Source: an uncultured Chlamydiae bacterium (GTDB lineage: Bacteria > Chlamydiota > Chlamydiia > Chlamydiales > JAJFMA01). Taken from it: a stretch of 64,000 nt of DNA. Shown here in pieces: positions 5,452-13,934 of this stretch. The position numbers and the translations under genes are program-made. Where the stretch lies: contig CAVQMM010000001.1 of the NCBI GenBank assembly GCA_963713615.1, positions 3,072,001-3,136,000 on the forward strand, given 5' to 3'. The notes under the pieces were generated by a model that did not search any database, was not told where the DNA came from, and was given only the letters and a program-made list of their open reading frames with translations. Each line of letters begins with the position of its first letter. The stretch's first letter is position 1.

Positions 5452-8077
5452 ACATCACATCGATGCTCTGGGGAACACCACCCTGATCGCCTATAATCAC
5501 CACCACCAGAATGCTCATGGACAAAAGGTTTTGCAGAAAACCACCACAGATCCACTTGGCAATCAGACCGTCGAAACCTTTGATGCTTTGTACCGCTTGG
5601 TATGCGTCGAAAAGCGTAATACCAAAGGCTTAGCGACCGCTCTGCAAGAAGTCTGCTACAGCCCCACTGGAGAGAAAGTACGCCAACGTGAAAAAGTCAT
5701 TACCTTCGGACAGCCCTCTCATGACTACATCATCAGCTGGTGTTATGACAGTATGCAGCGTCCGTTAAAAATGACTGAGCAAGGAGGAGCTTTATCGAAA
5801 GTCACCAACTATACTTACGACTCCGTGGGGAGACTGCAAACCCTCACCAAACCCGATGGCATCACCCTGCATCACCAATACGACTCGCTAGGTCGTCTAG
5901 CCAGGCTAACCTCTTCGGATGGAACGATTGACTATCACTATACTTATGACCTGCACAATAATCCCATTACCACCACCGACCTATGCTCACAGAGATCCAC
6001 CAGGCGTGAATATGACGCTTGGAACCATCTTGTTTTTGAAAAATTGGCTAACGAAACATGTTTTAGATATCGCTATGATAATCTCGAACGCCTCACTCAC
6101 GTGACTCTGCCCGATTTAGGAAGCATTGAATATTCCTACTATGGTCTAGAGCTTAGCAAAGTGAGTCGGTTCGACCCTCAAGGTCGTCTGCTCTACGAAC
6201 ATGCCTACTTGGATTATGATTTGGTTGGACGAGAACTAGCCTCACAGCTCATAGGGAAAGCTGGTCACCAGACAAGGCAGTGGGATGCGTTAGGACACAA
6301 TACTAAAATAGAAACCCCCTTTTGGTCTCAAGATATTCCAGAGAATGGCTTTGACCCTGTGGGTAACCTAAGCCACGTTTACAAGAGAGACCCTCTTGGC
6401 TCTGCGGAAGAACATTATCACTATGACGATCTCTACCAGCTAGTTGCAGAAGAGGGACCTTTAGCACACACCTATGCTTACGATTCCTTGCAAAACAGAC
6501 GGCAAAAAGATGCTCACCCCTATTCTGTGAATGAATTAAATCAAACACTCTCCTGTTCAGAAGCTCGCTATGAGTATGACCTGGATGGAAATCGGATAGG
6601 AAAAACTGAAGCTGACACGACGACCCACTATATCTATGACGCACTGAACCGCTTGACCTCCGTAGAACAACGCCAGAAATGGCGGGTAACTTATAGCTAC
6701 GACACATTCGGAAGGCGTTTAGCGCGCACTCTTTCGACCTGGAATATTAATGGCTGGTCTGACCCTCAAACCACTTCCTACCTCTATCAGGGCCAGAAGG
6801 AAATTGGAGCCATGGAGAATGGCCATATCATTCAGCTCAGAGTACTGGGAAATGGGAAAGGAGCCGAGCTCGGCGCTGCCATTGCATTAGAGCTAAATCA
6901 GAAAGTCTATGCGCCTACTCATGACCATCGAGGAAACGTCTGCTGCCTCGTGGACAGTGAAACAGGCATTGTCGTTGAAGGCTATCGTTATAGTGCATTT
7001 GGGGAACTTAAAATTTACGATGCGGCCAATGTTGCTCAAGCGCATTCAACAATCGCTAACCCATGGCTATTCGCTAGTAAGCGCCTCGATTCGCATACAG
7101 GGTTATTCCAATTTGGCAAGCGCGACTATGATACTTCGATAGGACGTTGGCTAACACCCGATCCACAAGGCTTTTCAGACGGACCCAACCTCTACGCCTA
7201 TGTGCACAATAATCCGTTGACCCTTATAGACCCTTGGGGACTCAGTGCTCTGTATGACCGAAATAAAGCGGCGGACAGTGGGCGAAAGACCAGCACTTCA
7301 AGGAACTGGGAATCACGCAGAGACAGCGTTCAAAGAGAGTCCACATATTCAAACTCTCATACATCAAGTGCTTGTAAGGGGATATGTGCCGGTATAGCAG
7401 ATTTTGGGTTATCCGTTTGTCATAGCTTTTGCGATTGTTTCTGCAATATAGGCCTATGGGATTCAGAATGTCCATCCGATGAGAAGTGTGCCATTAGGGA
7501 TTGCATTGACCAAACGCAGGAAACACATCGGCAATCCTTTGAGCAAGGGACGATGAATTTCTTGGGTATTGATCCCTCCGATATGACTTATCAAAATTAT
7601 CGCTATGGTGCTACAATGGCCTGTGAGGCAGCAGCCCTAGTATCTGGTGGATGGGGTTTAGCAAAGTTAGGTTGGTCTGTTGGAAAATTCGCTATAAGAG
7701 GGATTTCTACAGCGTTACCAAAGTTGCCAGTAACGTTAAACCGCTTTCACTTAAATGCCAGCCAGCTTCCCCCCACCGCCCAAAACAATATTCGCATACT
7801 ACGCGGCTGGGCCAAAAGCAAAGGATGGGAAAAACTGCCAAATCCCCATGGTGCGCCTGAAAAATGGGGGATATATAAAAATGGAGAATTTGAGTGGAGA
7901 CTGAACATTAAAAGTGAGCCCAGTGTTTCAGCTAACCTGAAGGCTGACAGTTACCTCCCGAGGTTTGATGCAAGATTAGATATTGGAGGTAGTCAATTTA
8001 TCAATCCGTTTTCAGGTCAAATTGGTGGCAGAGCAATAGGAACTCATTTGCCATTGGAAATGAATTATATTCAATAA
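5452..8077 (+). CDS. 5'-truncated Rhs module 1 (core, Cys-rich linker, toxin tip variant 1); ORF track 5531..8077
   Basis: Homology to the first Rhs gene starts right after the ISL3 remnant (IDALGN..IAYN..QKVLQKTTTDPLGN); core ends PLTLIDPWGL; tip ends GTHLPLEMNYIQ. Confidence 0.85.
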
Positions 8078-8092
8078 TATAAAGGCAAAATT

Positions 8093-8422
8093 ATGTCCGC
8101 GAATATTCAAGGGCTTATCAGAGTTCTTTTAGACCCTTTGGCTCGAGAGGATGAAAGACATGATGCCGCCATGGATCTTGGCGATTTTAGCGACGATAGA
8201 GCATTAGATGCTCTGATAATAATTGGAACCAATTTGTCGGAAAATGCTATTATTTTGGATGCAGTTGGAGAATCTATAGGGGAAATATTAGTTAAACGAA
8301 ATAAATATAATGAAAAATTAATCAACAGTCTAGCTCCGATAGCGCAGAAAACTGCCATGGCTTACATTCATTCACATAAGCAAGAGTGGGTGGAGGGCGG
8401 GCCGGGCGGGGGACAGGCCTGA
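8093..8422 (+). CDS. HEAT-repeat-like immunity protein, variant 1
   Basis: Directly follows the toxin tip; AREDERHDAAMDLG...ALDAL...GESIGEIL; paralogous to three downstream genes. Confidence 0.8.
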   Translation: MSANIQGLIRVLLDPLAREDERHDAAMDLGDFSDDRALDALIIIGTNLSENAIILDAVGESIGEILVKRNKYNEKLINSLAPIAQKTAMAYIHSHKQEWVEGGPGGGQA

Positions 8423-8425
8423 CAC

Positions 8426-12308: not shown

Positions 12309-12399
12309 CTTATTGACATGTCGTTGCAGAAGACTGTTTAAGCGTTGGGTGAAGCTGAATCAGGCAAAAAATCAACAAGTCACGACTAACCCCTCGCAG

Positions 12400-13610
12400 A
12401 GCTCGGCGCTGCCATTGCATTAGAGCTAAATCAGAAAGTCTATGCGCCTACTCATGACCATCGAGGAAACGTCTGCTGCCTCGTGGACAGTGAAACAGGC
12501 ATTGCCGTTGAAAGCTATCGTTATAGTGCATTTGGGGAACTTAAAATTTACGATTCCGCCATTGTTGCTCAAGCGTACTCTACAATCGCTAACCCATGGT
12601 TATTCGCTAGTAAGCGTCTCGATTCGCATACAGGGTTATTCCAATTTGGCAAGCGCGACTATGATACTTCGATAGGACGTTGGCTAACACCCGATCCACA
12701 AGGCTTTTCAGACGGACCCAACCTCTACGCCTATGTGCACAATAATCCGTTGACCCTTATAGACCCTTGGGGACTCAGTGCTCTGTATGACCGAAATAAA
12801 GCGGCGGACAGTGGGCGAAAGACCAGCACTTCAAGGAACTGGGAATCACGCAGAGACAGCGTTCAAAGAGAGTCCACATATTCAAACTCTCATACATCAA
12901 GTGCTTGTAAGGGGATATGTGCCGGTATAGCAGATTTTGGGTTATCCGTTTGTCATAGCTTTTGCGATTGTTTCTGCAATATAGGCCTATGGGATTCAGA
13001 ATGTCCATCCGAGGAAAAGTGTGCTATCAGGGATTGTATCGACCAAACGCAGGAAACACATCGGCAATCCTTTGAGCAAGGGACGATGAATTTCTTGGGT
13101 ATTGATCCCTCCGATATGACTTACCAAAATTATCGCTATGGTGCTACGATAGCCTGTGAGGCAGTAGCCCTAGTATCGGGTGGATGGGGCTTAGCAAAGT
13201 TAGGTTGGTCTGTTGGAAAATTCGCTATAAGAGGGGTCTATACAGCGTTACCAAAGTTACCAGTAACGTTAAACCGCTTTCACTTCAATGCCAGCCAGCT
13301 TTCCCCTACCGCCCAAAACAATATTCGTATACTACGCGGCTGGGCCAAAAGCAAAGGATGGGAAAAATTGCCTAACCCCCAAGGAGCACCAGAAAAATGG
13401 GGTGTTTATGTAGATGGAAAGTTTGAGTGGCGACTTAGTATAAAGCCTGAGGCAAGCTTTCGACCTAGATTAGAATCAGGTAGCTTGTTACCTAGATTTG
13501 ATGCGAGACTAGAGTCTATTGGAGGAAATCACTACATTAACCCTTTTTCCGCTCAGATAGGTGGAAAGGATATTGGAAGGCATCTTTCACTGAATGACGT
13601 TTATTGGTAA
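12400..13610 (+). pseudogene. Orphan Rhs module 4 (track ORF 12483..13610), toxin tip variant 4
   Basis: Repeat begins at ELGAAIALELNQK; identical core end; tip diverges after GWEKLPNP. Confidence 0.85.
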
Positions 13611-13622
13611 AAAAGGTTCTTT

Positions 13623-13934
13623 ATGTCAGATAAGGTCGATGGCTTAATTGAAATTCTCCTTGATCCTCAAGCGCGTGAAGATGAACGGGATGATGCTGCG
13701 TCTTATCTTGGGAAATATGATGATGCTAAAGCATTAAATGCGCTAGTTAAGGTTGGATCTAGTCCTTTGGTAGAGGATATGGTTCTAGACTCTTGTGGTG
13801 AATCCATTGCAGAAATTCTGGTTAGACGAAATCAGTTTAACAAGCACATTATTGACTTGCTCGTTCCAACGGCACGAAGAGCTGCCTGCGCAGTGATTCA
13901 AGGTCAAAAACCTGAATGGTTACAAGAGTTCTAG
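13623..13934 (+). CDS. HEAT-repeat-like immunity protein, variant 4
   Basis: AREDERDDAASYLG...CGESIAEIL...KPEW. Confidence 0.8.
   Translation: MSDKVDGLIEILLDPQAREDERDDAASYLGKYDDAKALNALVKVGSSPLVEDMVLDSCGESIAEILVRRNQFNKHIIDLLVPTARRAACAVIQGQKPEWLQEF

Follow-up and report, generated by a model that had tools for sequence, protein, structure and literature searches.

A window of 64,000 nt from the genome of an uncultured Chlamydiae bacterium (positions 3,072,001-3,136,000 of its main contig, C1) contains an array of four truncated Rhs cassettes in tandem. Each of them ends in a putative toxin domain, the tip, and is followed within 15 nt by a gene for a HEAT-like protein that we predict to be its immunity partner. 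We propose, with a probability of about 0.6, that tips and partners are old, divergent alleles of a single toxin-immunity family which were collected in truncated Rhs cassettes by homologous recombination, and that they serve as an immunity bank and as a reservoir for reloading. The mechanism that we consider the best reading is Rhs C-terminal displacement inside one toxin family. The genome comprises 3.97 Mb in three contigs, of which C1 accounts for 3.9 Mb, and is 99.1% complete and 2.12% contaminated.

The four cassettes (modules 1-4, Table 1) are found where a sequence-only reading of the window had placed them, except that module 1 starts at 5,439 and not at 5,452. In 60-nt windows, all six module pairs share 83-100% of their DNA from ~6,960 to 7,830 (module-1 coordinates), a stretch we call the stem, and only 43-68% in the tips, which bears out the near-identical stems and divergent tips described in that reading. 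Each tip is preceded by a YD-repeat core fragment that ends in a DPxG motif. The near-identity had been said to run through the Rhs core; it does hold for linker and stem, but modules 3 and 4 retain just ~0.3-0.4 kb of core, and modules 2 and 3 carry in-frame stops upstream of the tip. Behind the motif KLPNP the tips measure 73-77 amino acids (aa) and are 51-62% identical among the four modules. Because homology within the family begins at NNIRILRGW, we count the shared stretch NNIRILRGW...KLPNP as the first helix of the toxin domain itself, so that the domain extends beyond the last ~70-75 aa over which the modules had been said to diverge. The open reading frames (ORFs) downstream encode 101-111 aa, are 48-55% identical at the protein level and contain the motifs quoted for the divergent ~100-110-aa paralogue described behind each tip. 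The array had been described as four-membered, which is correct for the window; the genome holds nine further cassettes. Its 13 tips comprise the four in the window, eight at C1 385-399 kb and one at C1 2.37 Mb. The same partner gene stands behind all 13, and in 12 of them the frame is open through the domain; disruptions affect two of the partner genes, and there is one split tip.

Divergence between the alleles was measured as uncorrected proportions of differing synonymous (pS) and nonsynonymous (pN) sites in 66 pairs of 12 tips, the split one being left out. Residues 1-20 of the tip give a pS of 0.24 and a pN of 0.00, residues 41-93 a pS of 0.79 and a pN of 0.32. The last 60 linker codons (nine cassettes) have a pS of 0.15, and the 11 immunity genes that remain when the two disrupted ones are left out have a pS of 0.77 and a pN of 0.36. 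Pairwise change points range from residue 17 to 46 with a median of 23. The switch thus lies inside the C-terminal domain, as the sequence-only reading had it, but forms a zone and not a single point. Since synonymous sites are saturated behind the switch, the tips are, to judge from these values, old alleles on a young stem and not fresh duplicates. Mean identity among the genome's own alleles (tips 55%, partners 47%) is close to that among 26 tip-partner pairs from outside loci (53% and 39%). In a 49-row partner tree, 10 changes are required for the 11 own partners, no fewer than for shuffled labels (282 of 500 as low), and these partners form starred sister pairs with partners in other genomes; as a clade they appear in 0% of 200 bootstrap trees and are rejected by the approximately unbiased (AU) test (p-AU 3e-54, quick tree). 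A tip tree has too few columns and yielded no starred branch. Judged by their sequences, the alleles seem to be old variants that were gathered, not ones that diversified locally.

The switch inside the domain recurs in a congener. A survey of the phylum, in which 400 genomes were scored and one more was not, gave matches in 28; with at most nine candidates scored per genome, the counts are floors. There was a single match in 22 genomes, two matches in three genomes and three in one; the congener G101 had six and the source genome at least nine. G101 carries the tip on three full-length Rhs genes, one copy being part of a 1,822-aa Rhs, and in two cassettes; it has tandem cassettes too. Over the 390 nt that precede the domain, the stem of one of these genes and those of both cassettes show 100% identity. 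Identity is 80-96% in the first 90 nt of the domain and then drops, which places the divergence at about residue 30 in an ungapped comparison; in one pair the similarity persists to about +150. Between G101 and our genome the linkers are 29% and the shells 53% identical, and one G101 allele pair matches an own pair at 81% (tip) and 83% (partner), with a pS of 0.59-0.61, against a rough background of 66% over 19 neighbouring proteins. Since tip and partner are this close while the linkers are not, one allele type sits on two different stems and is joined to both in the same zone. Transfer of alleles between lineages seems likelier than an ancestral repertoire with replacement of the stem. The tip-HEAT pair was also seen in records titled Gammaproteobacteria, Coxiellaceae, Ca. 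Berkiella and Abditibacterium. Taken at face value, the distribution suggests exchange of the pair among protist-associated bacteria.

A profile of the four tips, searched against 1.84 billion representatives, recovered 156 proteins. In 122 of the 150 proteins listed the match ends at most 5 residues from the C-terminus. Among the 29 carriers scanned of these 150, nine were Rhs proteins (one with Hcp), two WXG100, one each PT-TG, PT-HINT and ankyrin proteins, and 15 familyless; a search for longer proteins with distant members gave three unnamed Rhs proteins. From the C-terminal position and the several unrelated carriers we conclude that the tip is, by its sequence relationships, a ~97-aa polymorphic-toxin domain which has no family name. 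In one homologue (P0230, a 2,232-aa ankyrin-repeat protein) the domain occupies residues 171-272, near the N-terminus and not C-terminal. No Pfam or NCBIfam model fits the tip, and none of 81 family members has a match; Ntox models were absent among these 81 too. Ntox37 (PF15535) was rejected, with no hit among the 81 members at E values up to 0.05 and an hhalign probability of 0.2% against 23 chlamydial Ntox37-like stretches. Ntox47, Ntox30 and the other Pfam Ntox families were set aside likewise: none of their models matched the 81 members, and their ESM Atlas rows (0.86-0.88) are leads only. ESM Atlas gave no usable match for our tip; for the relative P0204 it ranked unnamed clusters first, with Ntox37, Ntox47 and Ntox30 as leads of low recognition. 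BECR tRNases with helical immunity proteins, a further lead, appeared only in weak fold rows (4NTQ, Z 3.0), and a fold list that lacks them is no proof against them.

Conservation was scored in 104 near-full rows (100 hits and the four tips) and numbered from the Ala of AQNN. His90 is present in 100% of the rows, Lys45 and Arg62 in 99%, Glu28 and Trp30 in 98%, Ser58 in 97%, Arg9 in 96% and Arg66 in 91%. The motif PRFDAR had been singled out as conserved; its Asp64 is the family's sole conserved Asp, but at 77% (Ser in 17%) it is not invariant. All window tips keep Glu28, Lys45, Arg62, Arg66 and His90. The structure model of the tip (predicted local distance difference test, pLDDT, 91) consists of a helix, a beta-meander and short further strands. 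Against 48,161 chains, VIA-align placed PT7 first for our tip (Z 6.4, root-mean-square deviation 3.1, 75 residues aligned; next hit 4.3), a score to be read with the caution that a Z under 8 can mean a common arrangement, and first also for the distant member P0252 (Z 8.7, deviation 2.5, 75 aligned; next 4.5). The nuclease suspected by the sequence-only reading thereby gains a PT7-like fold in searches with models but no detectable sequence similarity to PT7. As this nearest solved fold lacks such similarity, we infer that the tip quite probably acts as a nuclease and do not file it under PT7. The invariant Glu/Lys/Arg/Arg/His set, which includes no invariant Asp, suggests an active site that may be metal-independent and of the RNase type rather than the Asp/His/Mg site of PT7.

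The partner is tied to the tip well beyond this genome, as expected for one toxin family with a dedicated HEAT-like partner. In a scan that used two motifs of our own tips and thus favours close relatives, a HEAT gene lay directly behind the tip in all 26 outside loci, 14 of them titled chlamydial. Seventeen of the 26 tips are on frames of more than 1,500 codons, three loci have two tips, and nine have extra partner copies. There are 302 immunity homologues; five named organisms occur among the 120 listed, all Chlamydiota. The partner profile matches alphaRep chains (E 8e-20 to 2e-3) and deoxyhypusine hydroxylase (3e-6), and single partner proteins stay under the Pfam cut-offs. Twelve own tips carry net charges of +2 to +6 and ten cognate partners net charges of -6 to -12. 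A complex model of tip 1 and partner 1 scored 0.63, compared with 0.00 for the best of three controls, and passes a mark which 116 of 157 solved but only two of 215 mismatched pairs reach and which is rough here, own alignments being used. Contacts agreed by at least 92% between runs, with a partner pLDDT of at least 83. All toxin contacts listed lie at residue 26 or later, behind the median switch. In the model Lys45 contacts Asp20 and Asp24 of the partner, which are kept in 10 of 11 own alleles, and His90 contacts Asp24; the length-variable toxin loop 68-72 contacts partner residues 60, 87, 90 and 91, the last three of which are variable.

The shell of module 1 is 98% identical over 1,829 nt to an Rhs gene at C1 2,428,577-2,433,973, the homology stopping at the DPWGL motif; to the head Rhs gene adjacent to it in the window it is 66% identical. 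The first ~2.8 kb of the head gene are 99-100% identical to three paralogues. At window position 2,396 the head gene changes shell type, its identity with the paralogue at C1 2.43 Mb falling from 100% to ~65%; this position is a third exchange point, in the middle of the shell. As module 1 begins only 68 nt further along that paralogue than this change point, module 1 may be the displaced 3' half of the head gene. The region C1 2.36-2.44 Mb holds Rhs genes and fragments whose 5' halves and promoter regions are near-identical to those of the head gene; they have two shell types and many unrelated tips, and the thirteenth cassette is among them. The second array (C1 385,260-398,988, minus strand) consists of eight tip-immunity cassettes without a head Rhs gene, most of them without Rhs core. 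The arms that they have in common with module 1 measure 103-969 nt and end at 7,827-7,850. IS21 and other transposase genes interrupt this array; one immunity gene is truncated, one has an insert and one tip is split. As to export, the intact Rhs genes begin, by eye, with signal-peptide-like stretches. Matches to VipB and PAAR, the mark of Rhs proteins delivered by a type VI secretion system (T6SS), were absent from this 99.1% complete genome, with positive controls, and one FHIPEP gene is present. The toxin may thus leave for a rival through Sec.

From these observations a mechanism can be proposed. Crossovers would take place in the common stem, up to about toxin residue 23. With the crossover ahead of the contact region, the part of the tip that contacts the immunity protein would travel together with its own immunity gene, and the incoming piece would displace the resident one downstream. 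Stepwise displacement would leave arms of very different lengths, as are seen. Exchange may operate at three levels: in mid-shell, at the DPxG motif and inside the toxin domain. The HEAT-like protein is predicted to plug the toxin, its conserved Asp residues covering Lys45 and His90, while a variable ring, in which toxin loop 68-72 faces immunity helix 83-95, could confer partial allele specificity, as in the dual recognition of colicins. Today the main role of the array would be that of an immunity bank, directed against relatives whose full-length Rhs proteins carry the toxin, and it could also be a reservoir from which signal-peptide-bearing Rhs genes are reloaded. A more far-reaching version is possible, and we offer it tentatively: a serotype-like arms race among environmental chlamydiae, in which a PT7-fold nuclease with a rewired Lys/Arg/His site is blocked by HEAT proteins of one allele each, 13 cassettes act as a kin-recognition barcode in co-infected protist cells, crossovers inside the enzyme fall just ahead of the immunity-binding surface, and alleles move across species.

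Several results weigh against the collected-allele reading or parts of it. No tip is on a full-length Rhs gene in this assembly, the longest tip-bearing frames having 878 and 905 codons, and in the paralogue that best matches the cassette shells, an IS1634 element interrupts the gene close to the 5' end. Two of three congeners have no match to the family. The AU test does not reject a grouping of the four window immunity genes in one clade (p-AU 0.185). Concerning a specificity lock, change points up to residue 46 fall inside the predicted contact region, and the core of the predicted interface consists of residues conserved in nearly all alleles, which speaks against a strongly selected lock. 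The interface shows no excess variability on the toxin side (0.34 against 0.29 elsewhere, p 0.31) or on the immunity side (0.39 against 0.37, p 0.69), and pN is well below pS, so that it bears no sign of positive selection on the lock. Tip and partner distances of the ten own pairs are not correlated (rho 0.13; 1,123 of 5,000 permutations as high); those of the outside pairs are (rho 0.34; 2 of 5,000), which is no proof of co-evolution because kin share history. The complex tool also passes close cousins (10 of 12 colicin pairs), and the model therefore says nothing on allele specificity. As to the fold, the PT7 match of our own tip is under the caution line and thus moderate, Foldseek with the tip model found nothing at E 0.001 and PT7(Bc) first at E 0.39, and a sequence search of the PDB with an 81-row profile gave no match to the tip and no chain of 8OWU at E values up to 10. 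The sequence-only reading had seen in the array a library of specificity variants; with the interface neither extra variable nor under visible selection, that interpretation is partly supported overall.

Among published systems, the closest are the Rhs arrays known from Enterobacteriaceae. According to Jackson 2009 (PMC2935791), displacement has produced strings of core fragments there that vary in length and carry old, entirely dissimilar tips. The likeness extends to the place of the fragments, which follow an intact rhs gene, to the tip and small downstream gene that go with each of them, to the stops, and to old conserved tips drawn from a pool. There, however, tips switch at DPxGL and fragments match the adjacent gene, whereas here one family switches ~200 aa behind DPWGL and the fragment of module 1 matches a distant paralogue (98%) better than the adjacent gene (66%). 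By sequence, then, our array shares the core fragments of a classical displacement array and departs from it in two features, its homologous tips and a switch inside the toxin domain. Displacement of Rhs tips and orphan immunity are themselves known: Poole 2011 (PMC3150448) reports functional orphan pairs, production of an orphan immunity protein and Rhs tips that diverge at DPxGL, and Hagan 2023 (PMC10539506) shows exchange and orphan immunity; PMC9086364 and 10.64898/2026.07.13.738213 contribute nothing decisive to the comparison. In the broad sense of Zhang 2012 (PMC3482391), which provides the cassette model, the array appears to be a member of the polymorphic toxin systems, with several scaffolds, toxin-then-immunity order and truncated cassettes with homology arms. 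The same paper lists Imm-HEAT, likewise a HEAT-repeat immunity gene behind an Rhs tip, with the all-alpha Ntox34; our tip is mainly beta and matches no Ntox model. PT7 is an Mg-dependent DNase with Asp37 and His47 (10.1101/2021.10.19.465003) that degrades rRNA too (PMC13675652). PT7(Bc) and its immunity protein PIM7 (PDB 8OWU) resemble our pair in the small helix-plus-beta domain (75 of 76 residues superposed), in the combination of a basic toxin with an acidic immunity protein, and in an immunity Asp predicted at conserved toxin residues, as with PIM7 Asp17. The differences are that our tip is ~20 residues longer, lacks an invariant Asp and is 13-19% identical in the superposition, and that PIM7 has a helix-strand (alpha1-betaA) loop, whereas the immunity protein here is HEAT-like and hits no 8OWU chain.

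The colicin E2/E7/E8/E9 and pyocin DNases with their Im proteins have folds unrelated to ours and are not arranged in an Rhs cassette array. The colicin Im binding site is an exosite, and a cell usually has one pair. The likeness is that one enzyme family has several sets of immunity specificities and is bound by dual recognition (PMC4548480), a conserved hotspot with a variable specificity surface being the pattern predicted here. Myxobacterial sitAI loci number 15 to over 80 per genome and act between close relatives (PMC10433427), which resembles the many loci found here; SitA families, however, are defined by escort domains, cover over 30 toxin families and are all deliverable, whereas our genome has one family in truncated cassettes.

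Of the rival explanations, the one that survives best is that the HEAT genes alone are selected, with broad cross-protection through their conserved acidic core, while the tips decay and are never reloaded. We regard it as unlikely, despite the missing full-length carrier, the stops in modules 2 and 3, the split tip (1/13) and the disrupted immunity genes (2/13). It would also fit the conserved core contacts and the extra immunity copies in 9 of 26 outside loci, and orphan immunity in contact-dependent growth inhibition systems is reported to be expressed without toxin synthesis (PMC3150448). In one metatranscriptome run, moreover, four of four contig pieces (at window 10,614-10,791, 11,963-12,383 and 13,714-13,844) fall on partner genes, and these occupy 14% of the stretch; as contigs cannot show expression, this is a weak hint of immunity-only expression. 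Yet 12 of 13 tips are open through the domain, those in the window retain the five conserved residues, 13 copies would bring little gain if one immunity protein covered all alleles, and in the congener, cassettes and a full-length gene share 100% identical stems. An internal toxin-antitoxin role, as reported for the main and orphan rhs of Salmonella (PMC7043789), is quite improbable. In-frame start codons in the linkers would allow it, but sigma-70-like sites are not in excess (9 found, 15.3 expected), promoter and terminator scans being at or below chance, no RNA contig lies on a tip (weak evidence), and several arms of the second array are, at ~100 nt, too short for a linker.

It is also very improbable that one cassette was duplicated in tandem on the spot and that its tip and immunity gene then diverged quickly under diversifying selection. 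Such a history accounts for the tandem layout and would accommodate a window clade of immunity genes, but not for synonymous saturation behind the switch on a young stem, for pN far below pS, for own alleles about as distant from each other as those of other genomes, or for allele types common to those genomes. Chlamydiae live in eukaryotic cells, and the domain occurs in an ankyrin protein, so an effector against the protist host or fungi, with the HEAT protein as chaperone or self-protection factor, has to be weighed. PT7 is toxic to yeast and bacteria (10.1101/2021.10.19.465003). We give this explanation very little credence, as a strict one-to-one linkage of immunity genes, together with orphan copies of them, is characteristic of interbacterial systems (PMC3482391) and the domain is found on WXG100 and PT-TG carriers too.

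An assembly artefact, in which alleles of different strains were strung together through near-identical stems, had been named by the sequence-only reading as a possible refutation; although the stems are repeats of 0.8-2.2 kb and no public contig bridges a module junction, we consider it most unlikely, since the modules lie in a 3.9-Mb contig of a genome with little contamination, each has its own junction, length and stops, and the congener has tandem cassettes. Contigs from four peat-metagenome runs (four studies, one of them maybe the source) agree letter for letter with all four partner genes as well as with tips 2 and 3, and one of them bridges tip 2 to partner 2. None of the public contigs of these runs bridges two modules by at least 31 letters on each side; parts of the array which they leave uncovered prove nothing, and 16 further runs with small word shares lay outside the comparison.

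The array adds a toxin-immunity family that no Pfam or NCBIfam model covers, and it would give the PT7 fold, until now isolated, a second and distant branch. The alleles would form a natural panel of 11-13 cognate pairs on one scaffold, on which one could measure how immunity specificity is encoded and probe whether the position of the binding surface sets the crossover zone. They point to interbacterial conflict in obligate intracellular chlamydiae that have no T6SS, a subject untreated in the open-access papers searched. We found no account of the tip family or of same-family Rhs arrays in chlamydiae in that literature; subscription papers and the PT7 supplements, which may list homologues, lie outside it. 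With stem and tip joined inside the toxin domain, the lock could change while the weapon stays the same.

Table 1. Features of the array and its surroundings, in window coordinates.
Feature	Position	Strand	Remarks
Head Rhs gene, 1,830 aa, unrelated tip	1..5015	+	starts 477 nt before the window; array context
Presumed immunity gene of the head tip, 95-aa low-GC ORF	5031..5318	+	role suggested by position; unrelated to the HEAT family
Remnant like an ISL3 transposase C-terminus	5349..5438	-	abuts the start of module 1; PF01610, E 0.002, below cut-off
Module 1, 5'-truncated Rhs, 878-codon open frame	5439..8077	+	YD shell, DPWGL core motif, ~178-aa linker, toxin domain
Toxin domain allele 1, 99 aa	7778..8077	+	N-terminal helix and beta-meander; PT7-like fold (model)
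Switch zone (module-1 coordinates)	7826..7915	+	toxin residues 17-46; median change point residue 23, ~7,846
HEAT-like predicted immunity gene allele 1, 109 aa	8093..8422	+	
Module 2, shorter Rhs shell fragment, core, linker, toxin allele 2	8430..10494	+	in-frame stops 8,455 and 8,629
Toxin allele 2	10192..10494	+	within module 2
HEAT-like predicted immunity gene allele 2, 101 aa	10508..10813	+	
Module 3, core fragment, linker, toxin allele 3	~10846..11969	+	in-frame stop 11,139 in core motif
Toxin allele 3	11679..11969	+	within module 3
HEAT-like predicted immunity gene allele 3, 111 aa	11973..12308	+	likelier start 11,985
Module 4, core fragment, linker, toxin allele 4	12396..13610	+	
Toxin allele 4	13311..13610	+	within module 4
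HEAT-like predicted immunity gene allele 4, 103 aa	13623..13934	+	
IS1634-family element	14013..15728	-	33-nt inverted repeats; end of array

Some further observations concern the surroundings of the array and other Rhs genes. The tip of the head Rhs gene (window 4,701-5,012) has a faint match to DUF4258 (E 0.21). Ahead of the IS1634-family element, which has nine copies in the genome at 99.8-100% identity, a short degenerate piece of Rhs core can be made out by eye at ~13,965-14,012 and is perhaps the stump of a fifth module. At window 16,363-19,628 an IS21 element with 238-nt perfect inverted ends, which contain four internal repeats of 34-36 nt, lies inside an IS701-like gene. Elsewhere on C1, at 1,740,076-1,747,959 and 3,694,497-3,697,526, three Rhs C-termini have a common hydrophobic linker and homologous divergent ends, possibly the same switching within a family with another toxin. 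Rhs frames ending at C1 2,418,476, 2,392,570, 3,198,779 and 3,350,706 have unrelated tips in which Arg-x-Asp ... His-x-His is recognizable by eye; these might fit PT7- or Ntox47-like nucleases. Finally, two minus-strand ORFs of 369 and 604 aa at window 50,809-54,865 are possible secreted effectors; their N-termini are of low complexity, and by eye their Gly-rich repeats resemble MORN repeats.

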